This document shows, piece after piece, positions 5,001 to 61,586 of a DNA stretch of 64,000 nt. The notes beneath the pieces were generated by a model. It saw only the letters and a program-made list of their open reading frames with translations, made no database searches and had not been told where the DNA came from. The translations under genes and the position numbers were made by a program. Source of the stretch: Stegostoma tigrinum (lineage: Eukaryota); the NCBI RefSeq assembly GCF_030684315.1, contig NC_081370.1, positions 20,977,578 to 21,041,577 of the forward strand. Direction: 5' to 3'. Position 1 is the first letter of the stretch. Each line of letters starts with the position of its first letter.

Positions 5001-5770
5001 TAATGCAAGGATTACAACATTAATAGATTCAGAGATAATTGGAACTGCTGCTGCTGGAGAATCTGAGATAACAAGGTGTACAACTGGAATGAGCACAGCA
5101 GGCCAGGCAGCATTAGAGGAGCAGGGAAGCTGCTGTTTTGGGCCTGGATCCTTCTTCAGAAATGGGGGGAGAGGAAAGGGGTTCTGAAATAAATAGAGAC
5201 AGAGAAGGAGGCGGATGGAAGATGGATAAAGGAGCAGATAGGTGGAAAGGAGATGGGCGGGTCAAGAAGCGGTGATGGAGCCAGGTTCTATAGGCGGGTA
5301 CTGAGAAAGACAATGTGGCTGTAGTACTTGGTTTGCTTCAGGAAGTGGTCGAACAGCTTCAGGCCCAAAGAGATTACAAAAGGGTTGCAGTGGGAGAGAG
5401 ATCCACTGAGGTCTTTCCGGACGGAGGATACAACATTAGTGGTCTTCCTCTTTAATCAAATGCCTAAGTCTCTCCAATGCTGCTGCAATACCACATGTTT
5501 TACCCATGTCATTGTTACCAACATGTAGCAATGACTACTGGCTGTTCACCGTCCCCCTTCAGAATGCCTTGCAGCTGCTTTGAGCTATCCACTATCCTGG
5601 CACCAGGGAGGTAATATACCATTTGAGAGTCTCATTTGCTGCCACAGAACTGCCTGTCAATTCCCCTTACAACTGAGTCCCCTATCGCTAAAACTGTAAT
5701 AATATTTTTCCTCCCTTGCTTTGCATTAGTGCCAACTGTGGTGCCACCAACTTGACTGTCCTTCCAGGTA
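2050..5770 (-). mobile_element. Decayed near-full-length CR1-clade LINE (HER1-like)
   Basis: Minus-strand ORF pieces in the correct order: ORF1 esterase motif 'VLAIGDSVVRGID' (5632-5832), endonuclease C-terminus 'PTRNETVRDIVLGN...SDCNSVSF' (3850-4185), RT 'DLVYMAFSKAFDKIPRGRL...WIHNWL' (2840-3037); many stops and frameshifts. Confidence 0.88.
5031..5428 (-). mobile_element. Penelope-like element fragment (pLTR plus tail) nested in the CR1
   Basis: Matches the terminal repeat of the 20486-23260 PLE, with a decayed hammerhead motif; flanked by degenerate duplication with exact core TACAACATTA (5013-5022 / 5429-5438). Confidence 0.8.
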
Positions 5771-9791: not shown

Positions 9792-10023
9792 AGAGATAAT
9801 GGGAACTGCAGATGCTGGAGAATCCGAGATATCAAAGCTTGAAGCTGGATGAACACAGCAGGCCAAGCAGCATCTTAGCAGCACAAAAGCTGACGTTTTG
9901 AGCGTAGACCCTTCATCAGAAAAACTTTTTCTGATGAAGGGTCTAGGCCTGAAACGTCAGCTTTTGTGCTCCTAAGATGCTGTTTGACCTGCTGCGTTCA
10001 TCCAGCTCCATACTTTGTCATCT
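9792..10023 (-). mobile_element. Fold-back PLE mini-element (family 1) with hammerhead motif
   Basis: Tail plus ~95-bp inverted arms around a short A/T spacer; CTGATGAAGGGTCTAGGCCTGAAACGTCAG at 9931-9960; 21-bp TSD CTGCCAATAATGAATTGTTTC (9771-9791) / CTGCCACTAAGGAATGGTTTC (10024-10044), 3 mismatches. Confidence 0.9.
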
Positions 10024-14873: not shown

Positions 14874-15056
14874 ATACTAGGAGCTGTCGATGCTGGAGAA
14901 TCTGAGATAAAACAGTGTGAAACTGGATGAACACAGCAGGCCAAGCAGCATCAGTGGAGCAGGAAAGCTGACGTTTCAGGCCTAGACCCTTCATCAGCTT
15001 TCCTGCTCCTCTGATGCTGCTTGGTCTGCTGTGTTCATCCAGCTTCACACCATTTT
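14874..15056 (-). mobile_element. Fold-back PLE mini-element (family 1)
   Basis: Tail and arm with minus-strand hammerhead motif at 14968-14997, then a shorter inverted arm; perfect 12-bp TSD ACCACAACAGGT (14862-14873 / 15057-15068). Confidence 0.9.
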
Positions 15057-16729
15057 ACCACAACAGGTGATTTTGTTTTCTGCCACCAAGTTAAGAGCAA
15101 CTGACAAGCACCTTACAAATGTTTTTAGAATCTCACAAAATGAATGCCAGGATAATTCATTAGGAGTGGGACTCTTTGGTCATTGATTCATACAGCTCAT
15201 TTTAAAAGACGTCAATTTTCTATTAGTATGCAAACTATTCTCATTCAGACCACTATGTTCTCCAGCCTCCCACCATATTGGACTTATGTTAGATTTGGAG
15301 TTTTAATTTGAGCAGAAAATTGATGGTTGTAAAATTTTCAGATATAGCATTAAACTATTCTAGCAACATAGACAAAAACATATGTAACACTCCCCATTTA
15401 GAGATTTTATCGTGAGGAAAAGTAACCTACAGATTCTGAAAACTGTTAAATATTTGACTGAAATGCCTGGAGAAAAATTCAAAACAATTTATGTATTAAA
15501 CATGTAAAACCTTATATGTTTACATGTTATGCACATTTAAACTGATCTCAGCCATATGTAAGTTACAAGTGAGTTACTTTAGTACTTAGATGCTTGTTTC
15601 CTCCTAGAGCAAGTTTTGTCATTACTTAATTGCAAAATGATGGTGATGGGTGATAATTCTTTGGATATGCAATAAATAATTTGCATTGTTTATGAGATTA
15701 CGAGGAGAACCAAACTAATTAAATTAATAAATAAATTATATATACTAAATTTGTATGTAGCCAGTTGATAAGGTTGTAATTATTGTTGGGAGCTACTGTT
15801 TTGTGTGGAATATGTGTGGGATTGCTGAAAAACTGATTGTGCACTTTTACTCCTGCCCTCTCTTCATGGAGATGTATCATTGCTCCAGCAATGTTGCACA
15901 CAAACATGCCTTGATGTATTGATCATACCGGTTCTGTCTTTGGAAAACAGCTGCTTCACCTTCAAAGAACTCAGCCAACAACACTATTAAGGAAATAATA
16001 ATTAAGTTGTGAAAAGTAAAATATAATGCCTGTTACCTTGTTTATTGCTACACATTGGATTATATTAGATATCATATGGACTTTTTTAAAAAGTTAGAAA
16101 GAAGTTGCATTACAATTTAGTTAATAGCCACAACTCAGTATGAGTCAAAAATTTTACTAAGACCAAAATCCTTGCTATGAATAGTTTGATTGTTTAATTA
16201 TCTTTAGATGAAGAATTTGTCTAACAAATTCTTAAATTATCTTTTGGAAAAGTTTCTCATCTGAATATATTTAAGTAGTATTGATGGTTAAGTTCTTTGA
16301 AGGTGAAGCAATACCCTTCTGAAGATAGAACTAGTGCAAACGACGGTTCAAGGTAATGAGGTGAAGAACAGAGTAACCCCGGCAGAACCCAAATTGAGCA
16401 CGATTGAGCAAGTTATCTCTTTGCAAGTTGTTAAGTAAATACCAGTGTTTTTGCTACACTGGAATGGCTTGTCAATGGCAGCACACAGCTTCAATGCTTT
16501 TACGGGAATGTTGTCATAACCCGTAGCCTTTGCATTATCCAGTGTCTTCGGTTCTTGATATCATGCGAAGTGAATCAAATTGGTTGAGACTCACATCTGT
16601 GAAGCTGGAGCTCTCAGACAGATGCTAAGATGGATCATCCACTCAGCACTTCTGAATAAAGGTGGGTGCAGATATTTCAATATTAGTGAGTGAAAGTGAG
16701 TTGGCTGCGGCGAAAGCGGCCCATGTGGT

Positions 16730-17430
16730 GACAAACTTCAGGGTTGGAACCAAGGGCATAGGAGAAGGTGTTCAGGCCCTAAAATGATTGAACTCAACAT
16801 TCAGCCCAGGATGCTGCAGGACCCTATGTGGAAAATGATTTCACTTCAATGGAGTGCGACAGCAAAACCGAGATAGAGATGCTGGTCAGGGAGAACGGTG
16901 GTATTTTGAATTGGCAGGCAACCAGAAGCTTGCGGTCATTTTTGGACATTTTGTGCTCCCTGTTTCAAATCTCCTTTTTGAGCTTGCTGCAGAGATCCAG
17001 AGAAGATCAGCACTAACTGAAAGAACAGCATCTCATTTTCAACTTTGGGACTCAATATTGAGTTCAACAACTTTAGGACCTGAACACCTTCTTCCATGTC
17101 GTTCCCCACCCCCACATACCAGGCCATGTCACTGCATGGGCTGCTTTCACCTAAGCCAACCCATTTCCACTCACTAATGACTGCCGTTAGTAGCTTTTCT
17201 TCCTCCCTGGCTCCCTATTACACATTCTTTTGTCTGCCCAACTGTTGTTTTCTCTCTCTCCTTGGCCTCCATCTCCATCTATTGTTTACTCCTCTTCAGC
17301 ATACATGCCAACATTTTCCTAGCTACAGACAGTTCTGAAGAAGATCACTGAATCTGAAACATTAACTCTGCTTTCTCTACACAGCTGCTGCTAGACCTGC
17401 TGGGGTGCTCCAGCAATTCCTGTTTCTTTT
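16730..17430 (+). mobile_element. PLE family 2 3' fragment with inverted 5' arm
   Basis: Plus strand encodes endonuclease C-terminus 'LKEQHLIF...LNIEFNNFR' (~17015-17080); the same region is inverted at ~16730-16950; pLTR with hammerhead motif at 17331-17367. Confidence 0.75.
17331..17367 (+). ncRNA. Minimal type I hammerhead ribozyme motif (PLE family 2)
   Basis: AGTT-CTGAAGA-AGATCACTGAATCT-GAAA-CATT-AACT: stem I AGUU/AACU, stem II AGAU/AUCU; stem III ACGU is CpG-mutated to ACAU. Confidence 0.6.
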
Positions 17431-18330: not shown

Positions 18331-19138
18331 CAGGTGATGTGCTGTAGCTGTATGATGTGGGAGCTGGCTGATCCCATTGTGAACGGCTGTGACCACATCT
18401 GCAGCAAGTGTTGGTTGCTGGAAGAACTCCAGATTGACTGTAAGTGAGGCAGGTAGGGGGATTCAGAGTTCAGGAGTGCAGGAGCCTCAGCCCTTGACCT
18501 TGATCAACAGGTATGAGATTCTTGCTCCCTGTACGGATAAGGGAAAGGACTGTGGACTGGATGAGCCAGCTAACCACAGCACCATGGTGCAGAAAGCCAT
18601 TCAAGGGGGGGGAGCAAAAAGAGAGGTAGTTGTTATAGGGGATTCTATAATTAGGGGGACAGATAGTATCCTATGGAAGCCGGATCGGGAGTCCCTCATG
18701 GTGTGTCCCCTGCCCGGTGCCACAATGCAGGGCATCTCCAACCGGGTTGAAAGGATATTGAAGCAGGAGGGGTAGAATCCAGTCGTTGTGGTCCACGTTG
18801 GGACTAACAACATAGGCAAAGCTAGGGTAGAGGACCTGTTCAGGGATTATCAAGCACTAGGAAGGAAATTGAAGTACTGGTCCTCAGGAGTCATAATCTC
18901 TGGATTACTGCCTGAGCCACGTACTAATTGGCAAAGGGATAAGAAAGTTAAGGAAGTAAACATGTGGCTAAGGGATTGGTGTGGGAAAGAGGGATTCCAT
19001 TTCATGGAGCATTGGCATCAGTTTTGGAACCGGGGGGGATCTGCACTGTTGGGACAGTCTCCACCTAAATCTCCATCTGGAACCAGTGTTCTAGCGAAAA
19101 GGATAAATAGGATGGTCAGTAGGACTTTAAACTTCTGA
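18331..19138 (+). pseudogene. CR1 ORF1 (zinc finger plus SGNH esterase), disrupted
   Basis: 'QVMCCSCMMWE...HICSKCWLLEEL', 'VVVIGDSIIRG', 'VVHVGTNNIG'; internal stop and frameshifts. Confidence 0.85.
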
Positions 19139-20544
19139 GCTGGGGGGAAGGGAAAGCGAATGCGACAGGGAGTATGAAGTTAAATGGAAAGATAAGCAGC
19201 AGGATAGCATGTGTGCAGGTGGGTTTAAGCTCGAGGCAGAGTAGGAATACAGAAAAAAGGAAGGATAACCAAGGACATCTAATGATTTCCAATGTCTCTA
19301 AAAATGTTCAGAAAGTTAGCATTAAGGCACTTTACCTAAATGTTCGTAGTATTCGTAACAAAGTAGATGAATTAACGGCACAAATCATCTTGAACGATTA
19401 TGATGTGGTAGGCATCACAGAGACGTGGTTGCAGGGGGTTCAGGGCTGGCAGTTAAACATCCAAGGATTTACAACTTATTGAAAAGACAGGGAGGCGGGC
19501 AGAGGGGGCGGGGTAGCCTTGTTAGTTAAAAATGAAATTAAATCTATGGCACTGAATGACATAGGGTCAGATGATGTGTCGGATGTTGGTGGAGCTGAGG
19601 ATACAGAAAGGCAAAAAAGCCATAATGGGAGTTATGTACAGAGTAATAGTGACCAGGGCCAGGGGCGCAAGATGCACCGGGAAATCGATAGGGCATGTCA
19701 GAAAGGCAAGGTCACGGTGATCATGGGGGACTTCAATATGCAGGTGGTCTGGGTGAATAATGTTACCGGTGGATCCAAAGAAAGGGAATTCATGGAATGC
19801 TCACAGGATGGCTTTTTGGAACAGCTTGTGATGGAGCCCACAAGGGAGCAGGCTATTCTGGACTTAGTGCTATGTAATGAGCCAGACTTTATAAAAGACC
19901 TTAAAGTAAGGGAACATTTAGGAGGCAGTGATCATAATATGGTAGAGTTCAGTCTGCAGTTTGAAAGAGAGAAGCTAAAATTGGATGTAATGGTATTACC
20001 GTTAAATAAAGGTAATTATAGGGGCATGAGGGAGGAACTGATGAAAATTGACTGGAAGCAGAACCGAGCGCTGAAGACAGTAGAGCAGCAATAGCAGGAG
20101 TTCCTGGGTGTATTTGAGGACACAGGACAGAGGTTCATCCCAAAGAAAAAAAAGATTTTCCAGGCTGGAATTAGACAGCCATCGCTGACAAAGGAAGTCA
20201 GGAAATGTATCAAAGAAAAAGAGACAGCCTATAAAGTGGCGAAGAGAACTGGGAAATCAGAAGATTGAGAAGGCTACAAAAACAAACAGAGGATAACAAA
20301 GAGAGAAATAAGGAAGGAGAGGATCAAATATGAAGGTAGGCTACCCAGTTAAATTAGAAATGACAGTAAAAGTTTCTTTCAATACATAAGAAACAAACAA
20401 GAGACAAAAGTAGATATTGGGCCGCTACAAATTGATGCTGTAAGGCTAGTGATGGGAGATAAGGAAATAGCTGAAGAACTTAATATAACAAAGTGTGGAG
20501 CTGGATGAACACAGCAGCCAAGCAGCAGCTCAGGAGCACAAAAG

Positions 20545-20574
20545 CTGACGTTTCGGGCCTAGACCCTTCATCAG
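20545..20574 (-). ncRNA. Minimal type I hammerhead ribozyme motif (PLE family 1 pLTR)
   Basis: Reverse complement CTGATGA-A-GGGT-CTAG-GCCC-GAAA-CGTC-AG: intact CUGAUGA and GAAA boxes, GUC triplet, palindromic ACGU as stem III; stem I only ~2 bp. Confidence 0.7.
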
Positions 20575-20803
20575 AGAGGGGGATGGGGAGAGGGAACTGG
20601 AATAAATAGGGAGAGAGGGGGAGGCGGACCGAAGATGGAGAGAAAACAAGATAGGTAGAAAAGAGATTATAGGTGAGGAGGTAGGGAGGGGATAGGTCAG
20701 TCCAGGGAAGATGGACAGGTCAAGGAGGCGGGATGAGGTAGTAGGTAGGAAATGGAGGTGCGGCTTGGGGTGGGAGGAAGGGATGGGTGAGAGGAAGAAC
20801 AGG

Positions 20804-21308
20804 TTAGGGAAGCAGAGACAGGCTGGGCTGGTTTTGGGATGCAGTGGGGGGAGGGGATGAGCTGGGCTGGTTTTGTGACGCAGCGGGAGGAGGGGGCGAA
20901 CTGGGCTGGTTTTGGGATGTAGTGGGGGAAGGGGAGACTTTGAAGCTTGTGAAGTCCACATCGATACCATTGGGCTGCAGGGTTCCCAAGCGGAATATGA
21001 GTTGCTGTTCCTGCAACCTTCGGGTGGCATCATTGTGGCATTGCAGGAAGCCCATGATGGACATATCGCCTAAGGAATGGGAGGGGGAGTAGAAATGGTT
21101 TGCGACTGGGATGTGCAGTTGTTTGTTGCGAACCAAGCGGAGGTGTTCTGCAAAGCAACCCCCAAGCCTCCGCTTGGTTTCCCCAATGTAGAGGAAGCCA
21201 CACCAGGTGCAATGGATACAATATAGCACATTGGCAGATGTGCAGGTGAACTTCTGCTTGATATGGAAGGTCATCTTGGGGCCTGGGATAGGGGTGAGGG
21301 AGGAGGTG
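20804..21308 (-). pseudogene. PLE GIY-YIG endonuclease domain (open frame, in the inverted arm)
   Basis: 'FTCTSANVLYCIHCTWCGFLYIGETKRRLGGCFAEH...VANHF...H...RRLQEQQLIFRLGTLQPNGIDVDF': GIY-YIG with CxxC/His zinc motif. Confidence 0.9.
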
Positions 21309-21409
21309 AGGGACATCTACCGCCTTAACCTCTCCACCCCTCTCACCCACTTCAACCTCTCCCTCGCAGAATGGGCAGCCTCCCGCAGAATGGGCAGCCC
21401 TCCACTCCA

Positions 21410-22800
21410 ACCCTGACCTCACCATCAAACCCGCAGACAAGGGTGGCACTGTGGTAGTATGGCGCACTGACCTCTACATCACCGAGGCCAAACACCAACT
21501 CTCCGACACCTCCTCCTACCACCGCCATGATCATGATCGCACCCCCGAGCACCAAACCATCATCCCCAATACCATCCATGACCTCATCACCTCAGGAGAC
21601 CAGCCACCCACAGCCTCCAACCTCATTGTTCCCCAACCCTGCACGGCCCGTTGCCATCTCCTTTCCAAAATCCACAAACCTGCCTGCCCTGGTCAACCCA
21701 TTGCCTCAGCCTGTTCCTGCCCCACCGAACGCATCTCCACCTATCTGGACTCCATTTTCTCCTGTTTGCTCCAGGAACCCCCCACCTACATCCGTGATAC
21801 CACCCACGCCCTCCACCTCCTCCAGGACTTCCAATTCCCTTGCCCCCAACACCTCATTTTCACCATGGATGTCCAGTCCCTATACACCTGTATTCCTCAT
21901 GCAGATGGCCTCAAGGCCCTCCGCTTCTTCCTGTCCCGCAGGCCCGACCAATCCCCCTCCACCGACACCCTCATCCGCCGAGCCGAACTCGTCCTCACCC
22001 TCAACAACTTCTCTTTCGATTCCTCCCACTTCCTACAGACAAAGGGGGAGGCCATGGGTACCCACATGGGCCCCAGCTATGCCTGCCTCTTTGTAGGTTA
22101 CATGGAACAGTACTCTCTTCCACACCTACACAGGCCCCAAACCCCACCTCTTCCTCCCTTACATTGATGACTGTATCGGCGCCGCCTCAAGCTCCACAGA
22201 GGAGCTCAAACAGTTCATCCACTTCACCAACACCTTCCACTCCAACCTCAAGTACACCTGGGCCATCTCCAACCCATCACTCACCTTCCTGGACCTCTCA
22301 GTCTCCATCTCAGGTAACCAGCTAGAAACTGATGTCAATTTCAAGCCCACTGACTCCCACAGCTACCTAGAATACACCTCCTCCCACCTACCCTCCTGCA
22401 AAAATTCCATCCCCTATTCCCAATTCCTCCGCCTCCGTCGGATCTGCTCCCAGGATGAGGCATTCCACTTCCGCACATCCCAGATGTCCACGTTCTTCAA
22501 GGACCGCAACTTTCCCCCCGCAGTGGTTGAGAACGCCCTTGACCACATGAGGATCCCCCTCATTCTCACATACCACCCCACCAACCTCCAGATACAACTT
22601 ATCATCCTCTGATACTTCCGCCATCTACAATCCGATCCCACCACCCAAGACATTTTTCCATCCCCACCCTTGTCTGCCTTCCAGAGAGACCACTCTTTCC
22701 GTGACTCCTTTGTCCGCTCCACACTCCACTTCAACCCCACCACACCCGGCACGTTCCCCTGCAACTGCGGGAAATGCTACACTTGCCCCCACACCTCCTC
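21410..22800 (+). pseudogene. PLE reverse transcriptase, frameshifted
   Basis: 'IKPADKGGTVVVW', 'KIHK', 'FTMDVQSLYTCIP', 'NNFSF', 'GEAMGTHMGPSYA', 'YIDD' (~22160), 'LTFLD', linker 'CNCGKCYTC'. Confidence 0.92.
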
Positions 22801-25289
22801 AAGCTTCAAAATCTCCCCTTCCCCCACTGCATCCCAAAACCAGCCCAGCTCATCCCCTCCCCCCACTGCATCCCAAAACCAGCCCAGCCTGTCTCTGCTT
22901 CCCTAACCTGTTCTTCCTCTCACCCATCCCTTCCTCCCACCTCAAGCCACACCTCCATTTCTACCTACTACCTCATCCCGCCTCCTTGATCTGTCCATCT
23001 TCCCTGGACTGACCTATCCCCTCCCTACCTCCTCACCTATACTCTCCTCTCCACCTATCTTCTTTTCTCTCCATTTTTCGGTCCGCCTCCCCCCTCTCCC
23101 TATTTATTCCAGTTCCCTCTCCCCATCCCCCTCTCTAATGGAGGGTCTAGGCCCGAAACTTCAGCTTTTGTTCTCCTGAGATGCTGCTTGGCCTGCTGTG
23201 TTCATCCAGCTTCACACTTTGTTATCTTGGATTCTCCAGCATCTATAGTTCCCATTATCACTGAAGAAGCTAATAAATACTTTGCATCAGTCTTCACAGT
23301 GGAAGACATGAATAGTATCCCAACAATTAAGGAGAGTCGGGGGCAGAGTTGAGTATGGTAGGCATTACAAAAGAGAAAGTGCTAGAAAAGCTAAAAGGTC
23401 TAAAAATTGATAAATCTCCTGGCCCCAATGGGCTATATCCTAGAGTTCTGAGGGAGGTGGCTGAGAACATAGCGGATGCTTTGGTTGTGATCTTTCAAAA
23501 GTCACTGGAGTCTGGGAAAGTCCCAGATGACTGGGAAATTGCTGTTGTAATCCCCTTGTTTAAGAAAGGATCAAGGCAAAAGATGGAAAATTATAGGCCG
23601 ATTAGCCTAACTTCGGTTGTTGGTAAAATTCTAGAATCTATTGTTAAGGATGAGATTTCTAAATTCCTGGAATTGCAGGGTCAGATTAGAACAAGTCAGC
23701 ATGGATTTAGTAAGGGGAGGTCATGCCTGACAAAACTGTTAGAATTCTTTGAAGAGGTAACAAGTATGTTAGACCAGGGAAATCCAGTGGATGTTATCTA
23801 TCTAGACTTCCAAAAGGCCTTTGATAAAGTGCCTCACGGGAGGTCGCTGAGCAATGTGTGGGCCCATGGTGTTCGAGGTGAGCTACTGGCTTCGATTGAG
23901 GGTTGGCTGTCTGACAGACGATAGAGAGTTGGGATAAAAGGCTCTTTTTTGGAATGGCAACCAGTGACGACAGGTGTCCCGCAGGGTTCAGTTTTGGGGC
24001 TGCAGCTGTTCACTTTCTATATTATTGATCTGGATGAAAGGACTGGGGGCATTCTGTCGAAGTTTGCCAATGATACAAAGTTAGGTGGACAAGCAGGTAG
24101 TACTGAGGAGGTGAGGAGGCTGCAGAAAAATTTAGGCAGTTTAGGAGAGTGGTCCAGAAAATGGCTGATGGAATTCATTGTGAGCAAATGCAAGGTTTTG
24201 CACTTTGGAAAAAAGAGTACAGGCATAGACTATTTTCTAAACAGTGAGAAAATTCGTAAAGCAGAAGTACAAAGGGATCTGGGACTGTTGGTCCAGATTT
24301 CTCTAAAAGTTAACTTGCAGGTCGGGTCCGTGATTAAGAAAGTGAATGTAATGTCGTTTATCTCAAGAGGGTTGGAATATAAAAGCAGTGATGTGGTTCT
24401 GAGACTTTATAAATCTCTAGTTAGGCCCCACTTGGAATACTGTGTCCAATTTTGGGCCCCACACCTCAGGAAGAACATAACGGGCACTGGAGTGTGTCTA
24501 GCGGAGATTCACACGGATGACCTCTGGAATGGTAGGTTTAACATACAATGAACAGCTGAGGATCCTGGGATTGTATTCATTAGAGTTTAGAAGATTGGGG
24601 GGTGATCTAATAGAAACTTACAAGATAATGCATGGCTTAGAAAGAGTGGACACTGGGAAGTTGTTTCAGTTAGGTGGAGAGTCTAGGAGCTGTGGGCACA
24701 GCCTTAGAATTAGAGGGTGCATATTTAGAACGGAAATGAGGAGTCATTTCTTCAGCCAGACAGTGGTGGGCCTGTGGAATTCTTTGCCACGGAGCACAGA
24801 GGAGGCCAGGCGTTAAATGTCTTCAAGGCAGAGATTGATAAATTCTTGATCTCACAAGGTATTAAGGGCCACGGGGAGAGTGCGGGTAAGTGGAGTTGAA
24901 GTGCCCATCAGCTATGATTAAATGGCGAGGTGCACTTGATGGGCCAAACGGCCTTATTTCCACTTCTACGTCTTATGGTCTTACGGTCATCTGATCCTCA
25001 TCAGCTTTTTGATGTCTATTTTTAAAAGAAAAGATAATTCTAAAAAATTCTAAATTGAATGCAGTCCATGTTTAAATTTCTAAATATGAGTATTGCTGAA
25101 AAAAGCCACATTTTATTGAAGATATTTGTTCTGCAGTCATCACAACAATGCGCAAGAATACCAGTGAAGGAGAAACAGTCAACATTTGTACTATGTGAGA
25201 GAAAAGCACTGATTGATTGGCAAGTGGACTCTGAACGTTAGAGCTGTTATCATGGAGAATGTGTCAATTAATGATGCTTGACAGTTTGC

Positions 25290-25605
25290 AGCATGGTTGC
25301 TCAGTGGTTAGCACTGCTGACTTACAGCACCAGGGACGCAGGTTTGATTCCAACCTCGGGCAACTGTCTGTGTGGAGTTTGCACATTCTCCCCGTGTCTG
25401 CGTGGGTTTCCTCTCGGTGCTCCAGTTTCCTCCTGCAGTCCAAACTTGTGCAGGCTAGGTGGATTGGCCATGCTAAATTGCCTGTAGTGTTCAGGGATGT
25501 GGAGCTTAATTGGGCTATATGCGGATGGATCTGAGTAGGAAGCTCTGAGGGTCAATGTTGGTTTGTTGGGCCGAATGGCCTGTTTCCACACTGTAGGAGC
25601 TCCAT
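25290..25605 (+). mobile_element. HE1-like V-domain SINE
   Basis: A-box GCTCAGTGGTTAG, B-box GGTTTGATTCC, V-domain TGTGTGGAGTTTGCACATTCTCCCCGTGTCTGCGTGGGTTTCC, CR1-like 3' end GGGCCGAATGGCCTGTTTCC. Confidence 0.9.
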
Positions 25606-26397
25606 GATCAATGAACTGTTAGGCTTTGTTTAGATTTTAAACTGGGCAGGTTGTTTCTGATTGGCCAATGCTGCAATATCCCCTACCATTACTACTTATA
25701 ATTTACATTTAAGATTTGGATTCAGAAATCCATAGCAAAGTAATTAATACGGCGTAATTGGAGGAAGGTGACAATTGCAGAATATGGAGATAAAATGTGT
25801 ATTCTGACTCCATTTGTTCCTCAAATAACAACAGTAAACATGTTTTCTAATTTGTAGTCTGTGTTAGAAGACTGTATATAAATTAGCTGCCCTGCTACAA
25901 CAGTGATTACCTATCAAACATGCTTCATTCATTGTAAAACACTTAGATGTCAGATGTCATAAAATGTCCTAGATAATAAAGTAATTCTTCTGTACGTGTA
26001 GGACACTGGCAAGAGATGCTTAGTGTAGACAGCTGTAAACGACATGGAGGAAGAAAAAAATAAACCATGTAGTTCATTTGTGAATTGTATTAGCATAAAT
26101 AAGAATCAATCCAAAGGAGACCTAGGGATCTTAGTAGATTGAGTGTTCAATGTATTAGATCAATACAGAGCAATAATCAGTAAAGATAACAGAATGTTGA
26201 GCCAAAACAGTAAAATATAAGTCAAAGGAAGCCACGAATAAATTGTGCAGCACTAGAATGTGATTGATTATGTTTGCTAAGGACAGGAAGTGTGAGTTCT
26301 GGTGTCAATATAAGAACATATTAAAAATCTGAAGAAACCACTGGCGTTTCAGCATTGAAAGAATAAATCCAATAGTTTATATTAGAGGTATATAAAT

Positions 26398-26530
26398 TAG
26401 GAAGGCTGATGTTTCAGGCGTAGACCCTTCATCAGAAATTCTGAAGAAGGGTCGAGACCCGAAAAGTCAACCTTCTTGCTCCTCTGATGCTGCTTGGCCT
26501 GCTGTGTTCATCCAGCTCTGCACCTTGCTA
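26398..26530. mobile_element. Truncated fold-back PLE mini-element (family 1)
   Basis: Back-to-back decayed hammerhead motifs ...CCCTTCATCAG-AAATT-CTGAAGAAGGG...CCCGAAAAGTC; lies next to decayed CR1 sequence at ~26100-26390. Confidence 0.8.
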
Positions 26531-28100: not shown

Positions 28101-28135
28101 GAACCAGGAAGATAAGTGTTTGCTTTCATTCCCAG

Positions 28136-28356
28136 AGATAATGGGAACTGCAGATGCTGGAGAATTCCAAGATAATAAAATGTGAGGCTGGATGAACACA
28201 GCAGGCCAAGCAGCATCTCAGGAGCAGAAAAGCTGACGTTTCGGGCCTGGACCCTTCATCCTCTCTGATGAAGGGTCCAGGCCCGAAACGTCAGCTTTTC
28301 TGCTCCTGAGATGCTGCTTGGCCTGCTGTGTTCATCCAGCCTCACATTTTATTATC
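28136..28356 (-). mobile_element. Young perfect fold-back PLE mini-element (family 1)
   Basis: 93-bp perfect inverted repeat (28168-28260 / 28267-28359), 6-nt loop, ~32-nt unpaired tail; perfect 16-bp TSD TTGCTTTCATTCCCAG (28120-28135 / 28357-28372). Confidence 0.95.
28265..28294 (+). ncRNA. Minimal hammerhead ribozyme motif
   Basis: CTGATGAAGGGTCCAGGCCCGAAACGTCAG, catalytic boxes intact. Confidence 0.7.
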
Positions 28357-29869
28357 TTGCTTTCATTCCCAGCTATGATTGGATAGATAAAAATGGAACT
28401 GAATGAGTGCACTGGATGACAGAGGAGAGGAGTTGCAGGAGGATGGCTTTGGACTACTGTGTTCATGCCTGCTTGAACTTTACCATAATTTGCTACATTT
28501 CTGTAGTTTTCCAGAACTCTGTCAATACTGCCACTTTTATGGATTTATGGTAACACTGATTGTTGTGATATTTCTCGCAGCAGATGTGTGAAATAGCTCT
28601 AAGTGACATGCTCAACATGTGACCTAGTAGTAAAAAGCTTTCAACCTCCATCTTATGGTGGTCTGTGAGGTTGCAAAAGAACATGCTGCAGGAAGCATGC
28701 TGTAATACATCCAAATTGGTTACCTTAAGCCCAGGTATGCAACTGTCTGTGACTGTAGTGTACGTATGTAGACATCAGGAGTTGTAAATAAAAATTGAAT
28801 TCTTTGGTACTGGGTGATTCATGTCTCAGTCATATTTATAGGAACAAACAAAAGTATTGGAGTGTGATAGTTGCAGATCACAGATATTAAGTTTTACCAT
28901 CACATCATCCTGGAAGAACAGTTGTAGGTGCCTGTCACTGATTATAAAAGATTCCTCGCTGAAGATCATACAACCCTAAACCATAAAGCATCCAAACAAA
29001 CAATTACAATAAGTTGACATGAGTATAGATCTCCAATTTTAACAGCCAGGAGGCAGATTTAGCTTCTTTCTCATTAAAGTTCAAGGCTTATTGAGCTAGA
29101 AGTCTTCAGTCTTTTTTACAAAAAATAAATCAGTCTGCTTCCTGACATGTAAGTTAAAGTACAACGTTTGGAAGATTTGTTACAGACTTAAAAGCAGAGT
29201 CAGCAGCAAAAAGGCTTCCAACTGACTTAAAAATACATAGATGATCAAAGGATAGTCAGTTTAATTATAGATCTGTCTTGTTTAGAACTGGGTTTTAAGC
29301 AATAGAAAGTGTTTTCCTAACCAAGTCAAGCTTACCTATGTACAGTGGTTGGTAGGACTTGCCATTTCATTTTCTTTAATTTGGCATCAAAGCTGGTATC
29401 ATCACTTCTCATTTGGTGCAAATCCCCTGTAGCAGCTGAAATAGGACCTTTCTTCCTTCAAGGCACAGATTCACACTCAGCAAAGCCTCCTTCTAAGGTC
29501 ACAACCATAAAAAATAAGCTAAAATAGAAGAAGAGTGAAAAAATTTGAATAATAAACCAAATAAAATGCAAGAGCAAACAAGTTCCACACTCTGCATCAA
29601 AAAAAGCCAGAGATCATCAGGAAGAAACTGGAAGCAAGCAAGCATTTAAATGTGGTTTGAGCCATGAGTGACAACTTCAACAAACTACAGCTACTTAACT
29701 AACGTATCCCTTAGATGATCTGTTTTACTTTGCAGTTCGAGTCATAACTATTCAGAGAGAAGATCTGTTATTACCTGTTATTGGCAAGGAGAGGCTTTGA
29801 TGAATGAATACATCAGATATCTAATAAAACGATTTCCACTGGAGAGTGCTTCAGGATTAGCTTAAGGTA

Positions 29870-31561: not shown

Positions 31562-31644
31562 GAACAAAAACAGACTTGCTGAGCTTTTCCAGCAACTTCG
31601 GTTTTTGTTCATGATTTACAGCATCTGCAGTTCTTTCGGTTTCT
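31562..31644 (+). mobile_element. 83-bp fold-back PLE micro-element (family 2)
   Basis: GAACAAAAAC...TTGCTG / CAGCAA...GTTTTTGTTC hairpin plus tail GATTTACAGCATCTGCAGTTCTTTCGGTTT; perfect 14-bp TSD CACAAGTGCTTTTG (31548-31561 / 31645-31658). Confidence 0.85.
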
Positions 31645-33372: not shown

Positions 33373-33685
33373 TGGGGCGGCACGGTGGCTCAGCGGCTAG
33401 CGCTGCAGCCTCATAGCACCAGGGACCTGGGTTCAATTCTACCCTCAGGCAACTGTCTGTGCGGAGTTTGCACATTCTCCCCATGTCTGTGTGGGTTTTC
33501 TCTGGGTGCTTCGGTTTCCTCCCACAGTCTAAAGGCATGCAGGCTAGGTGGATTGGCCGTGCTAACTTGCCTGTAGTGTTCAGGGATGTGTAGATTAGGG
33601 GGATGAGTCCGGGTGGGATGTTCCAAGGGTCAGTGTGGACTTGTTGGGCTGAAGGACCTGTTTCCACACTGTAGGAATTCTATGA
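33373..33685 (+). mobile_element. HE1-like V-domain SINE
   Basis: GGGGCGGCACGGTGGCTCAG head, GGGTTCAATTC B-box, V-domain, tail GGAATTCTATG. Confidence 0.9.
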
Positions 33686-38061: not shown

Positions 38062-38357
38062 TCAACGGTGGCTCATGGTTGACACTGCTGTCTCACAGAA
38101 CTAGGGGCCCGGTTTCAATTCCACCCTCGGGCGACTGTGTGTGGAGTTTGCACATTCTCCCTGTGTGCGTTACGTGGATTGGCCATTCTAAATTGCCAAT
38201 AGTATTCAAGAATGCATTGGTTAAATGTGTTAGCCATGGGAAATGTAGGGTTACAGGGAAAGGGTAGGGAGATGGATCTGGATGAGATTCTCTTTGGAGG
38301 ATCGGCATGGTCTTGTTGGGCCAAATGGCCTGTCTCCACACTGTAGGGATTCTGTGA
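38062..38357 (+). mobile_element. HE1-like V-domain SINE (internally deleted)
   Basis: Head, V-domain start and 3' tail GGGCCAAATGGCCTGTCTCCACACTGTAGGGATTCT. Confidence 0.85.
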
Positions 38358-43002: not shown

Positions 43003-43130
43003 AAAACAAATCCAAGAACTGCAGAACCTGGAAATCTGAATCAAAACTGGAAATTGCTGGAGAAATTCAGCAGAACTGGCAGCATATGTGCAGAGAAAAC
43101 AGAATCAATGTTTCAGGTCCAGTGACCCTT
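43003..43130 (-). mobile_element. PLE family 2 pLTR/tail fragment
   Basis: Reverse complement AAGGGTCACTGGACCTGAAACATT...CTGCCAG...CAGCAATTTCC...TCTGCAGTTCT; homologous to 50937-51071. Confidence 0.75.
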
Positions 43131-47667: not shown

Positions 47668-48187
47668 TCTGAGGTAACAAGGTGTAGAGCTGGATGAACA
47701 CAGCAGGCCTCACAGCATCAGAGGAGCAGGAAAGCTGACGTTTCGGGCCTAGACACTTCTTCAGAAATGGGGGAGGGGAAGGGGGTTCTGAAATAAATAG
47801 GGAGAGAGGGGGAGGCGGATGGAAGATGGATAGAGGAGAAGACAGGTGGAGGAGAGACAGACAGGTCAAAGAAGTGGGGATGGAGCCAATAAAGGTGAGT
47901 GTAGGTAGGGAGTTAGGTCAGTCCAGTGAGGACGGATAGGTCAAAGGGGCGGGATGAGGTTAGTAGGTAGGAGATGGGGGTGGGGCTTGAGTTGGGAGGA
48001 AGGGATAGGTGGGAGGAAGGACAGGTTAGGGAGGCGGGGATGAGCTGGGATAGTTTAGGGATGCGGTAGGGGAAGGGGAGATTTTGAAGCTTGTGAAGTC
48101 CACATTGACACCATTGGGCTGCAGGGTTCCCAAGCAGAATATGAGTTGCTGTTCCTATAACCTTCAGGTGGCATCATTGTGGCAGTG
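47668..48187 (-). mobile_element. PLE family 1 (CTGAAGA variant) 3' fragment
   Basis: Endonuclease C-terminus plus pLTR homologous to 20486-21040; hammerhead-like motif in reverse at ~47735-47764. Confidence 0.9.
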
Positions 48188-48201
48188 TGGATTTCATGAT
48201 A

Positions 48202-48422
48202 GCAAAGTGTGGAGCTGGATGAACACAGCAGGCCAAGTAGCATCTCAGGAGCACAAAAGCTGATGTTTCGGGCCTAGACCCTTCATCAGAGTTCTCTGGT
48301 GAAGGGTCTAGGCCCGAAACGTCAGCTTTTGTGCTCCTGAGATGCTGCTTGGCCTGCTGTGTTCATCCAGCTCCACACTTTGTTATCTTGGATTCTCCAG
48401 CATCTGCAGTTCCCATTATCAC
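48202..48422 (+). mobile_element. Fold-back PLE mini-element (family 1)
   Basis: ~90-bp inverted arms, short loop, tail ...CAGCATCTGCAGTTCCCATTATC; 14-bp TSD TGGATTTCATGATA (48188-48201 / 48423-48436). Confidence 0.92.
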
Positions 48423-50278: not shown

Positions 50279-50936
50279 CCTACATTAACTTATCAATAGT
50301 TGTGGTTGATTTCACTAGATTCTCTCATTTCTGAAAGTTGTTTCAACGTGTATTTAATCTGCAGCACAGGCAAGCAACTCGAAGGAGAGTTGTGTTTTTC
50401 TCACATGGTATAGCAGTTGGCAACTGTGTTGCTGCAAGTTAAACATATCATCATTGCACTCGAGAACAAATAATCATTATAAGCAGAAATAAAATGTGAA
50501 CTTTAAAAGCAGCCTCTAAATGTAAAGGCGCCCACAAATCACAGTGATGTCCGTGGCATTTGGCATCACTATTAGTGAAACATGCACTTAAGCCACTTAT
50601 TTGTTCCAGATGTCACATTGAGTGGCAGTTGACCTTCAATCCACATTGGATTGTCTTTTCTGTAGAGCATCAGTTTGTTACGTTATTTCACACATAATAT
50701 TTAAAATGAAGGAATGCCAAAGAGGAGCATTTTTCATTTATAGTGTCCTTCCAAAGTCCGTTATTGCAATAATAGTCTGTATGCTTAAAAATAATTCCAG
50801 CTCCCATTATGGATGACTCTAGTTATGTTGTATCATCATTGGCTTTATTCATTTTAATCAAGATTACAAGATCAGTCAAGCCTTCATGCTTGCCCAGAGC
50901 ATAAAACCCGCTTAAACCAAATAATATCTGGCCAGT

Positions 50937-51071
50937 TCTGAGGAAGGATCACCTGACCCGAAACTTTAACTCTGATTTCTCTCTACAGATGATGCCAGAC
51001 CGGCTGAGCTTATCCAGAATTCTTGTTCTTGTTTCTGATTTACAGCATCCACAGTTTTCTCTGTTTCTATT
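50937..51071 (+). mobile_element. PLE family 2 pLTR/tail with hammerhead motif
   Basis: AGTT-CTGAGGA-AGGATCACCTGACCC-GAAA-CTTT-AACT; degenerate 15-bp TSD TAATATCTGGCCAGT (50922-50936) / TAGTACCTGGGCAGT (51072-51086). Confidence 0.8.
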
Positions 51072-51412: not shown

Positions 51413-51644
51413 TGGAATAACTCCACTCTATGGTATCCTGTGACCAAATCACCCTTTATTTACATACATAATACACAACACTGACCCAGCTGGATCAGTG
51501 CCAGCTCCCAGAGTCAGCAGAACCCCTGACACTCCAGTTTATATCTAGCAGCCAGAGCTCCCTGACTGGACCGGATTAACAGTCCCGATCAAGGAACTCA
51601 TATTCTATGAGGTCCACCTGGCTGATACCATTCCAATCATTACA
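51413..51644 (-). repeat. Gypsy 3' LTR (~230 bp)
   Basis: Reverse complement TGTAATGA...GATATAAA...AATAAA...TTATTCCA; homologous to 61359-61586. Confidence 0.85.
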
Positions 51645-53890
51645 CTCCTTTGCCTCTAAGTTGTGGGATGTAGGCTCGTTCTTTATCCTGTAACTTCTCT
51701 TAGACATTTTCACGCAAGTTTTCCTCCATCTCAGCCTCAGATACCGACTGCATGCATTGAACCATAGCCCACCTCTTGCATCAGGAGCTTCACGGAAGAA
51801 ATTACTCTTTGTCAGGTGGAAATGGCACTAAATCTGCAATATCTGCCTTGTCTACCTCATCCTCAAATGTTTCTTTGGGGCTAGGTGGAGAACGAGAACC
51901 CATGGGTTCTGATAGCCTTTCTGGCTGCTCCGAGGGGTCAGGTATGTTTTGCTCCAGATCCATTTGCAAGGTTGCAGCTGTCACGTGATCCACGTGCTTG
52001 TTCAAGACCAGTTCTCCTTCCCAAACTTTGTACCTCACAGGGTTTAACCTCATGCTGACCATGTCTGTTATCCATCCAGGGCCATTCCCGTGACTTTGAC
52101 ATCAAACTTTGTCTCCTGAAGTAAACTGCCTCTTACTTAGAGGAGTTTTGTGTCTGGTGTTAGCATTCCTGATGCCATTTTCACTTTCCCAAAGCCCCGG
52201 CTCAGGTCCAGAAAGATCAAATTTAACCTGGTGCAGAGTCTTCTCCCATTAGCAACCCTACTGGAACTGTCCTTGTAGTTGTGTGGAGGGGTAGGGCGAT
52301 AATCAAACAGAAACTGGGACAGTATAGTATTGGGTAAAGCTATAGGCTGTTTCTTTAAGCCCGCCTTCAAAGTTTGGACTGCAGCCTTCACCAGATCATT
52401 GGGCGTTGGATGGTAAGGGGCTGACCTCACATGCCAAATGCTATTCAACTTTAGGAAATATTCAAAATCCCTGCTGGTAAATGATGGCCCGTTGTCTGCG
52501 ACCAAAACTTCTTGGAGTCGGTGTATTGCAAAAAACGCTTGTAGCTCTCCAGTTGTCTTCCCTGTGTTTGACAAATGAATTCTATGCACATCCAACTACT
52601 TTGAGTGGGCATCCACAATGACTCAGAGCACTGACCCCATGAAAGAATCAGCATAGTCAATGTATAACCATTTACTTGACCATTTCCACAAATGTGGGGG
52701 TGTTGTTGGCAGTAATTTTTGTCCTTGTTTGCATTCTGGGCTCTGCCCCACCAATATGGCTATGTCAGCTAACGAACCTGGCCACCAGACATAACTTTTT
52801 GGCAACAACTTCATTTTGGAAACCTCTGGATGACCTTGGTGGAGTTCAGCCAGCATCTGGCGGCGACATTTGCTCCGGACAAACACTGGTGATCTCAACA
52901 AGTCCGGGAAGGATTCAGTTCTGAATGTGATGGCCCTTTCTCTTCTCCCATCACACCAACTGTATTAGTTTTGCAGGGATATTTTTGCGTTCACAGTCTG
53001 ATATTGTCAGCAGTGGCCAGAAGGGTGTCCAAAATGTTTAAAGCTAGAATGGACTCTTCTAGTGGTGGCACCACCAGTGGTGTATCTGCCAGTGGGAGGT
53101 AGCTCAGGGTTTCCACATTTGCCACTTGGCCTCTCAGACAGTGTTCCAGCTTGTAATTGTACACAGTTACAATTTTAACCCAGCACTGAATTCGACCTGA
53201 AGCAATGGTTGGCATGGCTTTGCCCTCTTTAAGTAGACCTAACAAGGGTTTGTGACCTGTTACTGTTACAAATTTATGTCTGTAAAGTAATGGTGGAACT
53301 TTCTCACACAGAATCTTCCTTCTCTAGCTGGATATATTTTCGTTTGGCCTCAGCCAAAGTCCAGGAAGCATATTCTGTCACCTGTTCCTCTCCATTTGGC
53401 CACCAGTAAGCTAACACTAACACTACCCCAAGGCCACAGCATTGCATGTCAGCATCCATCTTTCTTAGAATTGTAGTGTGCCAACTCCTTAGATGATAAT
53501 AACTGTTTCCATATTTACCTAAAGGCTACATCTTGGCTACAAAGATTATGATTTCAAAGGCTGACCCTTTTTCAATGGCAAATACAAGGGTGCCAGACAG
53601 AGACCAAGTTATGTGTGAATTTTCTATAATAATTTACCAACTGAAGGAAAGGCCTAATCTCTGATACAGGCATGGGAGCCAAGCACATTTGGTTGCCTTC
53701 ACCTTCATTTCTGCTGGGTATAACCTGATCTTGACGACTCTGTAACACAAATAGATCATTTGGGGTACCTGGAACACATATTTTTCCCTCTTAAAGCATA
53801 CACCTACCTTGAAGAAATGTTTAAGCACTATGTCCAAGTTCTCTAACTTTTTTTTATGGGTTTTCCCAGTTATTGGCACGATGGTGATCT
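51413..53890 (-). mobile_element. Ty3/Gypsy LTR retrotransposon, 3' portion (RT end, RNase H, integrase, 3' LTR)
   Basis: 'ASGRIQCW...YNYKLEH', 'LHQGHPEVSKMKLL..SYVWWPG...C', 'LVADNGPSFTS...SAPYHPTPN'; PPT abutting the LTR. Confidence 0.9.
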
Positions 53891-58424: not shown

Positions 58425-59217
58425 AAGTCTCAGAGTCATACAGCACAGAAATAGGCCCTTTGGCCCAACTGTCCTACTGGTCCAAATGTCTTTTAAATGT
58501 TGTAATTGTACTTGCCTCTACTACTTCCTCTGGGAACTCATTCCACGTACATACCAGCCCGTGTGAAAACGTTGCTCCTCAGGTCCCTTTTAAGTCTTCC
58601 CCTCTCACCTTAAACATATGCTCTCTAGTTTTGGACACTCACCCTGGGGAAAAGACTTTGACTATTCACTTTATCTGTGTTCCTCATGAGTTTATAAACC
58701 TCACACAAGGCCACTCCTCAGCCTTCTAAGCTCTAGTGTAAAAAGTCCCAGTCTATCCAACATCTCCTTATAACTCAAACTTTCTAGTCCTGGTAACATC
58801 CTTGTATTTCTTCTTTGTATCCTTTCCAGATTGATGGCATCCCTTCTATAGGAGAGCAACGAGAATTGTATGCAGTATTCTAAATGTGGCCTTATGAATA
58901 TCATGTACTGTCATGACATGACATCCCAACTCCTGTACTCAACTTTTTAACTGATGAAGGCAAGCATGTCAAAAGCCTTCACCACACCCTGTCTACCTGT
59001 GATGCCACTGTCAAGGAACTATGCACCTGTACCCCTAGGTCCCTCTGTTTGATATCATTACCCAAGACTGTACCATTACCTGTATAAGCCCTGCCTTGGT
59101 TTGTCTTACCAAAATGCAACATCTTGCATTTATCTGAATTAAACTCCACTTGCCTTTCCTTGGCCAACTGGTCCAGGTGATCAAGATCCAATTGCACTCT
59201 TAGGTACCCTTCTTCAC
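58425..59217 (-). mobile_element. CR1 3' fragment
   Basis: 'IRPHLEYCIQF...LERIQRRNTRMLPGL' and 'FNSDKCKMLHFG...QRDLGVQV'. Confidence 0.88.
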
Positions 59218-59510
59218 AGGCTGAATCCAGTGGTGGACTCTAATACTATATGTGTATAATTACAGGCCAGAACACAGTGCAGGAGGTCAAGCAGCAAATG
59301 CTGATGCATTGAGCCACCTCCTGTTCGCAGAAGCACCACTGGTGGTATTGCCAGTGGAAAAGTCTATAATGGTTTTACATTTTCTGTACACACTTCCAGT
59401 CACAGCTGACAATATCAGATTTTGGATGCAAAGAGATCTACTCATGGCAGAACTAAAACAGTTGGTGGTGATAGGAAAAGCAAATGAGCCATCAAAACCA
59501 GAATTGAAAC

Positions 59511-59601
59511 AAAAATAGAGATTGCTGGAAAAGCTCAGTACATCTGGCTGCTTCTGTGGAGATAACATTTTGGTTGAATGACACTTCCTCTGAATATCCT
59601 T
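59511..59601 (-). mobile_element. PLE family 2 fragment nested in Gypsy
   Basis: ATTGCTGGAAAAGCTCAG...TCTGGC; degenerate 17-bp TSD AAAACCAGAATTGAAAC (59494-59510) / ACAACCAAAATGGAAAC (59602-59618). Confidence 0.75.
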
Positions 59602-60243
59602 ACAACCAAAATGGAAACCTTTTTGGACCCAGAGAGACCAGATCACAGTCGAGGATGACATGTTAGTACAGGGAACAAAAGTGATTTTCTTGTGCAAATG
59701 TTGCCACCAGATACTGGCTGAACTCCTCTAGGGTGATCCATCGGCGTCCAAAATGTCGATGTTGGTGGTTGGTTATGCCTGGTGGCCAGGACTGGGTGCA
59801 GATATAGCATATTGATGGGGCAATGCCCAGAGCGCAACAAGGATAGAAATTACCAATAGCAGCTCCCCCACATTTGTGGGAATGGCTGGGTAAACCCTGG
59901 ACTCAGTTACACGTTGACTATGCCAGTCCTTTCATGGGCTCAATGTTCTTAGTCATTGTGGACACCCAATCAAAGTGTTTGGATGTGCTTGTTCGTCAAA
60001 CACAGGGACGATGATAGAAGAACTACATGTATTGTTTGCAATACACAGTCTCCTGGAAGTGTTGCTCACAGATAGTGGGCTAACATTTACAAGTAGGGAA
60101 TTCGAGTATTTCCTAAAATTGAATGGTGTTCTTAAAATATGAACAGCTGTATACCATCCATTGTCCAATAGTCTGCCAGAAAGAGCAGACCAAATTTGAA
60201 GGCAGGCATAAAGAAATAGTCTACATCTTCACACAATACCAAA

Positions 60244-60399
60244 TAGTACTTTGGGTACATTTAAGTCGTCATTGGATAAGCATATGGACGTACATGGAAT
60301 AGTGTAGGTTAGATGGGCTTGAGATCGGTATGACACGTCGGCACAACATCGAGGGCCGAAGGACCTGTACTGTGCTGTAATGTTCTATGTTCTATGTTC
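60244..60399 (+). mobile_element. CR1 3' tail nested in Gypsy integrase
   Basis: GAGGGCCGAAGGACCTGTACTGTGCTG followed by a (TGTTCTA)n tail. Confidence 0.85.
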
Positions 60400-60536
60400 A
60401 AACTGTCATAGTCCCTATTTGATTTTAGGACCACCTGCATGCAACTACAGGGACAGCTACAGCAGATGGGAGTGGGGTGGGATGGTTATGAAATGGCATC
60501 AGGAATGCCAATGTCAGGCACAAACTCCTCTAAATG

Positions 60537-60871
60537 AGCGAGACAGGGAGAGAGAGACGGGGGGGGAGAGAGATGGGGGGGAAGAGAGGCAGTGGGGAGA
60601 GAGACGGCGGGGGAGAGAGACGGGGGGGGGAGAGAGACGGGGGAGAGAGACGGGGGGAGAGAGACAGGGAGGGAGGGGGGAGAGGGGCGGTGGGGGAGAC
60701 GGGCAGTGGGGGAGAGGGGCGGAGAGGGAGAGGGGCGGAGAGGGAGAGGGGCGGAGAGGGAGAGGGGCGGAGAGGGAGAGGGACCAAGAGGGAGAGACAG
60801 AGGGAGATGGAGACGGGAGAGGGACAGAGGGAGAGGGAGAGACAGCCGGAGAGACAGATGGAGAGACAGAG
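60537..60871 (+). repeat. Purine-rich G/A tandem and low-complexity expansion
   Basis: GGAGAGAGACGGGG units and a 16-mer GGAGAGGGAGAGGGGC repeated ~4 times (60721-60783). Confidence 0.95.
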
Positions 60872-61358: not shown

Positions 61359-61586
61359 TGGAGTGTTTTGTCACAAGGTCAGCCAGTTAGATCTCAGAAT
61401 ATGAATTCCTTGATTGGAGCTGTTAATCCGTTCCAATCAGAGAGTCCTGGCTGACAGATATAAACAGGAGTATCAGGAGCTCTGTTCACTTTGAGAGCTG
61501 GCTTTGATGAAGTTGGGGCTGTGTCACATACTACACACATGCAAATAAAGGGTAACTGGGACACCAGTTTCTGCGGAGTAATTTCG
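61359..61586 (+). repeat. Gypsy 3' LTR
   Basis: Follows the PPT; GATATAAA, AATAAAGGG, ends ...GTAATTTCG; homologous to 51413-51644. Confidence 0.8.

Follow-up and report, generated by a model that had tools for sequence, protein, structure and literature searches.

The insertion at 28136-28356 of the window (the whole stretch of DNA analysed, 64 kb in length, from which all the copies described here come) is a fold-back, whose arms, 28168-28260 and 28267-28359, are complementary at 93 of 93 positions and enclose a loop of 6 nt. The flanking TSD copies (28120-28135 and 28357-28372) are identical (16/16), and the final 3 bp of the right arm lie inside the TSD. The original prediction, a 93-bp inverted repeat with a 6-nt loop, a tail of ~32 nt, a 16-bp TSD and a hammerhead core, is matched exactly. 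In 20 shuffles of the window, the longest perfect stem was 9-13 bp, compared to 93 bp at this locus (folding z = −26.7).

Read from left to right, the left TSD copy, the last 3 nt of which are the element sequence just past the tail end, is followed by the unpaired PLE tail (28136-28167, 32 nt, 'tail' being used as in PMC11167929 and PMC8557442), in which the element sense is the minus strand and the outer end is the putative first RT start. Next come the tail-bearing pLTR arm (28168-28260, minus strand), which begins at +3 of the hammerhead core and lacks the first two core bases; the apex loop (28261-28266, plus strand), made up of the first 6 nt of the right, sense arm, from −4 of the core; a minimal type I hammerhead motif (28265-28292, plus strand); and the tail-less pLTR arm (28267-28356, plus strand), which is identical to the other arm at 90 of 90 positions and the outer end of which is the putative second RT start. 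Placed in register with the start of the tail, the right TSD copy matches it in the first 3 nt and at 7 of the first 14 positions.

Hammerhead motif and hairpin structure

The hammerhead motif was identified by a descriptor scan, with features as described in PMC4209133. Starting from 28265, it comprises the core, a helix II of up to 5 bp, one extra base (A) after the core and a helix I of 2 bp; the extra base before helix II, the G-C closing pair and the palindromic remnant of helix III that characterize minimal type I hammerheads are all present. Helix I, for which 4-5 bp would be expected, has 2 bp in family 1, to which this insertion belongs, and 4 bp in the family-2 copy at 17330; a 2-bp helix I has been reported for D. 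virilis (PMC4209133). A search against Rfam yielded no hammerhead at gathering score in the window, nor any at E up to 10 around 28136-28356, so that the motif rests on the descriptor scan. Cleavage would be predicted after 28292 (+28/+29). In the predicted fold of the hairpin, the core is paired, the probability of helix II is about 1e-22, and opening the core and forming helix II would cost about 43 kcal/mol; the same calculation does not favour the ribozyme fold in an isolated arm either. Thus, in the modelled structure, the hammerhead is buried and its cleavage appears unlikely, so that the fold-back would be hammerhead-bearing only as sequence. The label 'hairpin-ribozyme' that had been applied to these elements is misleading, given the paired core and an opposite strand that lacks two core bases.

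A motif resembling a 3' splice site follows a long pyrimidine tract 22-23 nt upstream of the core and is conserved in both family-1 subfamilies (at approximately 20596-20606, 23103-23113, 47789-47799 and 5184-5194). At −22/−23, this motif lies off the apex. In D. virilis Penelope, an intron ends at the hammerhead (PMC4209133).

Parent element and family inventory

The arms of the short fold-backs continue into a long insertion of ~2.8 kb at 20486-23260, which bears out the assignment of the arms to pLTR sequence. This insertion consists of an inverted GIY-YIG part with a tail-less pLTR (20486-21309), followed by a forward RT part, the 3' UTR, a pLTR and a tail; it is flanked by a 15-bp TSD (13/15) and broken by frameshifts, one stop and a 5' truncation. 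Its outer ends are those of the short fold-backs, with a tail-less arm on one side and a tail on the other. The pieces 21309-22816 (plus strand) and 20948-21301 (minus strand) tile residues 259-887 of a single 889-residue homologue that spans RT and GIY-YIG, the forward RT piece stopping at residue ~768 and the inverted endonuclease piece beginning at residue 769. On the strand with the tail, the endonuclease region is missing, and the sequence continues exactly where the copy on the other strand ends, with an 8-nt overlap (22792-22820 and 21301-21309), as if one cDNA had taken over the template from the other. The short internal repeat of the 3' UTR (20823-20949 and 22816-22890) differs in copy number between the two arms of this same insertion, and has fewer copies in the old subfamily. 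The host of the long insertion is a LINE (18383-24813) with a GDSL esterase-like ORF1 piece, an AP endonuclease and an RT.

Among the best 120 of 181 matches in a homologue search, the PLE pieces were closest to sequences of Chiloscyllium punctatum (79% and 76%), with Mobula at 70%, which points to a cartilaginous fish as the probable host. The local Pfam scan did not score the RT and endonuclease fragments recognized by that search (PF01541 is the GIY-YIG entry). The PLE-type RT followed by a C-terminal GIY-YIG endonuclease in one ORF homologue, together with a pLTR with a type I minimal hammerhead, an inverted pLTR and a 30-40 bp tail on one side only, identify the parent as an EN+ PLE; an inverted pLTR with a tail of 30-40 bp is the canonical form of EN+ insertions (PMC8557442, PMC3846280). 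A Cys-rich linker at about 22760-22790, aligned in the homologues, is of the kind common to Neptune and Nematis (PMC8557442) and points to a parent probably of the Neptune/Nematis type, an assignment that is based on the linker, as the 120 of 181 matches listed include no named Neptune or Poseidon reference.

Family 1 accounts for nine insertions in the window, namely six short fold-backs, the long inverted insertion and two single-arm copies. Short fold-backs are thus the commonest form of this family (6/9), in line with the suggestion that they are the dominant product. The single-arm copies are both 5'-truncated members of the old subfamily on the minus strand: one (5033-5283) has a tail and reads about 125 nt past the core, and the other (47668-48187) lacks a tail and extends some 470 nt beyond the core, reaching into the endonuclease end. 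Family 2 has five insertions, one of which is a clear micro fold-back (31562-31644); the others are a single-arm copy that starts at the hammerhead 5' edge (50933-51067, plus strand) and similar copies at 17330, 43007-43130 and 59505-59593. No clear second arm is present in two of the nine family-1 and four of the five family-2 insertions, and inverted second arms sought at 17330, 43044 and 50933 were not supported (chance 0.84, 0.13 and 0.62, respectively; 43044 is doubtful). The family-2 arm at 59505-59593, which has a weak possible partner at 59682-59731, sits within an LTR-retroelement remnant (59217-61564). Altogether, the 13 PLE pieces counted amount to 5,103 bp, or 8% of the window.

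The original prediction listed seven copies of the same design. All seven are real PLE fold-backs; they are uneven, and the design of the insertion at 28136 fits the other six loosely. Three of the seven have a stem of about 90 bp or longer; the stem of a fourth measures 69 bp, that of a fifth about 40 bp and those of the remaining two about 10 bp. The hammerhead core is complete in five, and a TSD is present in six. Two copies are near-symmetric, an older one at 9792-10023 (stem 99 bp, 87%; tail on the left; 21-bp TSD, 18/21) and one at 48202-48422 (stem 102 bp, 93%; tail on the right; perfect 14-bp TSD). An asymmetric copy of the old subfamily (14874-15056; stem 69 bp, 12-bp TSD) has the core in one arm only, and its short arm begins somewhere from +27 to +31, an interval that contains the predicted hammerhead cut. 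A remnant of the same subfamily (26399-26530) has its left arm cut to about 40 bp, and neither a tail nor a TSD was found there. The strongly asymmetric copy at 61828-61953, from the same subfamily as 28136, combines a tail-less arm of 85 nt with a second arm of about 10 nt and a tail, has no intact core and is flanked by a perfect 17-bp TSD. The family-2 micro fold-back at 31562-31644 (83 bp, plus strand, 14-bp TSD) lacks a hammerhead; its inverted arm of 10-12 nt, which is accompanied by a short arm with a tail, has a chance probability of 0.001. The young fold-back at 48202 lies directly against an older PLE arm, at the end where that arm is 5'-truncated (47668-48422 in all); PLEs have been reported to insert into or beside earlier copies (PMC6765202).

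A Pfam scan of 127 ORFs of at least 70 aa (and 9 others), the scope of which leaves out small exons, detected no host-gene domain. Two protein searches with a 61-residue read-through of the 48202 apex, aimed at apexes in other sharks, returned no match. No stray copies of a conserved 21-nt motif were found in the bacterial and archaeal genome contigs scanned.

Inner and outer ends of the arms

When the 5' ends of the family-1 arms were compared, 10 of 16 were located between −6 and +7 of the first base of the core (p at most 0.0012, assuming geometric lengths with a mean cDNA of 60 nt or more); counted per insertion, the clustering holds for 6 of 9 (p at most 0.015). The long arms of family 2 likewise start at the hammerhead 5' edge in four of five cases. 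There is about an even chance that this clustering is caused by the template RNA's 5' end, located near −4 of the core; the alternative cause is stalling of the RT at the C-rich tract. Initiator-like motifs place a start exactly at −4 in four of the five sequences scanned, which is a lead only, as these motifs are of low information, have 6 to 10 further upstream matches in two long tracts and draw part of the match from the core itself. Hammerhead cleavage can be rejected as the cause of the apex for most copies: the cut would fall at +28/+29, yet only 1 of the 12 fold-back arms (that in 14874) starts there. A built-in 4-bp palindrome as a hard-wired joint of 28136 would require a C-run that is 3 nt shorter than the one in either of the two parent arms observed, and is unproven.

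At the outer ends, the overlap between TSD and element amounts to 18 nt over 10 family-1 ends, compared to 7.8 expected (p = 0.006). This count covers 10 of the 12 TSD-bearing family-1 ends and omits the tail ends of 9792 and 14874, for which the template further out is not known. In the six family-1 ends that lack a tail, the target sequence is similar, in register, to the tail missing there, with 40 of 84 matches over 14 nt compared to 21 expected; registers slid against each other give 19-24 of 84, and positions 15-28 show no excess (24/84, 20.7 expected). When the contiguous overlap is left aside, 29 of 67 positions match (16.9 expected, p = 0.001). The resemblance was spotted post hoc in 28136 and 48202; after removal of both, 20 of 48 positions match (12.1 expected, p = 0.011). 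It is near chance at 61828 and 14874. The family-2 copy at 31562 shows no such resemblance (3/13 beyond the junction, overlap 0), and its inclusion gives 32 of 80 (20.4 expected, p = 0.004). Because the target of the long insertion lies inside a LINE, its tail match of 9/14 is not an old PLE remnant. These observations suggest that the tail may be the binding site of the second primer, and we infer, from sequence comparison, that the second target end would anneal to the RNA tail and prime at the base of the tail. According to PMC11167929, no primer-template homology is seen in vitro in a PLE of a different clade, which counts against the generality of tail pairing.

Origin of the fold-backs

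Taken together, each fold-back is fairly probably the outcome of a single PLE integration event that involved twin priming. Under this model, the PLE protein would nick both target strands 12-21 bp apart, as reflected in the TSDs observed; two-strand cleavage and extension have been demonstrated in vitro for an anole PLE, with two RT start sites that bound the tail (PMC11167929). One target end, paired over 1-3 nt or more, would then start cDNA synthesis at the distal end of the tail, in keeping with the overlap seen at the outer ends. The other target end would form a loose pairing with the tail's first ~14 nt and prime at the tail base, and one arm would lack a tail because its primer starts there. 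Both cDNAs would usually end at the hammerhead 5' edge, the template RNA presumably starting about 4 nt upstream of the core, and their ends would be joined head-to-head by end-joining, the junctions observed showing either microhomology of 0-4 nt or a small number of added bases. Longer cDNAs from the same process would give the long inverted insertion at 20486-23260, and the layout of the latter, with RT up to residue ~768 and the inverted endonuclease from 769, supports twin priming. Re-priming on the same RNA would account both for the identical arms and for the hand-over between RT and endonuclease in this insertion, the one case of its kind. The hammerhead would be a passenger, inactive in the hairpin.

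A different origin, which we consider unlikely, is copying of the whole hairpin, which would be either a non-autonomous SINE-like element or derived from master PLEs with a fold-back 5' end; the apex would then be inherited, and several masters would give several apexes. Length and ends are very uniform in three of the seven copies, fold-backs make up two thirds of the family-1 insertions, non-autonomous PLE derivatives such as retrozymes and Chlamys elements exist (bioRxiv 10.64898/2026.07.22.740005; PMC8557442), and each subfamily could own its apex. However, the apex junctions differ in all seven short fold-backs, including both pairs from the same subfamily (28136/61828 and 14874/26399). 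Compared to its nearest relative, 61828, the insertion at 28136 has only four differences in the arms, but the apex is entirely different and so is the identity of the longer arm; the two arms of any one element agree in their subfamily variants. In a tree of 14 arms, from which the left arm of 26399 (40 nt) and the shorter arm of 61828 (10 nt) were excluded, short copies fall together with long copies in old and young groups alike, and a single clade of short copies, as expected of a lineage apart from the autonomous element, was rejected (p-AU = 5.7 × 10−6); no branch of this tree reaches the strict support level. The tail-less ends overlap and resemble tail sequence, which would be absent from that position in a fixed hairpin template. 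Among classical SINE features, no tRNA was called in the window, and no tRNA head or Pol III A-/B-box pattern was found on either strand. A minor point is that the absence of arm mismatches in 28136 leaves no trace of an A-to-I edited dsRNA template.

Thus, of the two options that the original prediction offered, integration by-product and self-propagating SINE-like class, the former is favoured and the latter is unsupported, and its own test for a propagating family, uniqueness of the apex in each copy, came out against such a family. The power of this test is low, with one window, nine family-1 insertions, about four subfamilies and two same-subfamily pairs; the test is also incomplete, as a fixed RNA 5' end would give similar apexes without self-propagation. 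Several independent origins of the short copies are possible, and some apex types may recur genome-wide, which is compatible with the data from the window. The fold-backs are most likely integration by-products, rather than a new class of element or a self-propagating SINE. A more far-reaching scenario, in which some fold-backs are re-copied whole in trans by the PLE enzyme and make up a non-autonomous class with near-perfect 90-bp hairpin RNA, thousands of anti-parent dsRNA sources in shark genomes and targets chosen by pairing between DNA and the RNA tail, appears improbable.

Snap-back, whereby one strand folds and primes itself, with the endonuclease cutting back one end so that a tail persists on one side only, was proposed on an antisense template for rotifer PLEs (PMC3846280) and, with respect to the tail, in PMC8557442. 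Here, it seems a doubtful explanation. It would yield arms identical at birth and is compatible with the tiny near-symmetric loops at 9792, 48202 and 26399, and folding back at a microhomology of 3-4 nt would suit 14874 and 31562. However, snap-back of a single cDNA requires that the longer arm be the one made first, with the tail, whereas in both 28136 and 61828 the longer arm is tail-less. Furthermore, the RT and endonuclease pieces of the long insertion lie on opposite strands and do not overlap, and a likeness of the target to the tail is not predicted by snap-back. These points bear less directly on self-priming with an antisense RNA as template.

Even less probable is central deletion, i.e. 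that longer inverted insertions subsequently lost their centre, as unstable palindromes often do. Longer arms do exist (at 5033, 47668 and 20486), the apexes are heterogeneous and 26399 underwent a later deletion; but the youngest copies, with perfect TSDs and no arm mismatches, are short already, and the family-2 single-arm copies that start at the hammerhead edge (4/5) are not palindromes. The reading of the fold-backs as DNA-transposon MITEs or microRNA hairpins retains a negligible probability: the inserts are short, non-coding and hairpin-forming, and there are microRNA-family scores in Rfam around 28136-28356, but all of these are below the gathering threshold and reflect hairpin shape only, the termini are not mutual inverted repeats, the TSDs vary from 12 to 21 bp, and the arms run on into PLE RT/endonuclease sequence, which effectively refutes this reading already and bears out the earlier statement that these are not DNA MITEs.

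Comparison with known systems

In L1 twin priming, two target ends prime two cDNAs, which are joined by microhomology. The break between RT and endonuclease in 20486-23260 is alike, whereas L1 pieces are non-overlapping and have a poly(A) end; here, both primers would copy the same region, giving a palindrome.

With canonical EN+ PLE insertions, as described in PMC8557442 and PMC3846280, the fold-backs share the head-to-head inverted pLTR, the one-sided tail, the TSD and a palindrome at the junction; they differ in that two pLTR ends without an ORF are the majority product in the window and that the ends of the arms gather at the hammerhead edge. PLE remnants of Schistosoma mansoni contain pairs of minimal hammerheads on opposite strands, 100-700 bp apart (PMC4209133). 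Two opposite-strand minimal hammerheads in truncated PLE copies are thus common to both, whereas in the fold-backs the two cores abut at the apex; PMC4209133 devotes a single sentence to these pairs, with no analysis of junctions, tails or TSDs. The fold-backs are real and abundant, and represent a minimal version of an insertion structure already known for PLEs.

The anole element PAc (Poseidon, Anolis; PMC11167929) shares the two RT start sites bounding the tail, the cutting and extension of both target strands and an initiation for which hammerhead cleavage is not needed. It belongs to another clade, the shark parent having the Cys-rich linker of Neptune/Nematis. The study of PAc did not resolve the joining of the second strand, and describes as unvalidated how PLEs complete their integration and why the tail is left on one side only.

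Non-LTR retrozymes (PMC7229834; bioRxiv 10.64898/2026.07.22.740005) are, like the fold-backs, short, non-coding and PLE-derived, with a type I hammerhead. As described there, they form head-to-tail tandems that yield circular RNA, in contrast to the fold-backs, in which every pair is head-to-head and the ribozyme would be sequestered. In transgenic Drosophila, Penelope inverted repeats give rise to siRNA (PMC3681739); inverted Penelope copies as a source of dsRNA are a shared feature, those in Drosophila being long and rearranged, with inefficient silencing according to this report. If transcribed, at most four of the seven fold-backs (stems of 69 bp or more) could, judging from stem length, act as a dsRNA/siRNA source, and such hairpins are likely to be mis-annotated as MITEs or microRNA precursors.

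In the open-access literature, which excludes subscription papers, Repbase and Dfam, we found no account of a minimal fold-back in cartilaginous fish, nor of twin priming in PLEs. Previous publications already report inverted pLTRs with a tail, hammerhead pairs on opposite strands and the production of siRNA from inverted Penelope repeats. The location of arm 5' ends at the hammerhead 5' edge and the in-register resemblance between target and tail go beyond the published accounts found. The value of these two observations is mechanistic, as both bear on how PLEs integrate. Fold-back stubs would be the smallest product of PLE integration, and a shark genome may hold very many such read-outs of priming and joint. 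If the tail does bind the second primer, the asymmetry of the tail would be explained and PLE targeting would be partly RNA-guided.

Other repeats in the window

Two related LTR-retroelement remnants with integrase and RNase H (51440-53199 and 59217-61564) lie in opposite orientation. Old, degenerate long inverted repeats of other families, with arms 72-83% complementary and no hammerhead core, are located at 16682-17178 and 15931-16331. Finally, three copies of an interspersed repeat of ~320 bp, with about 80% identity, are present at 25288-25607, 33377-33685 and 38065-38357.
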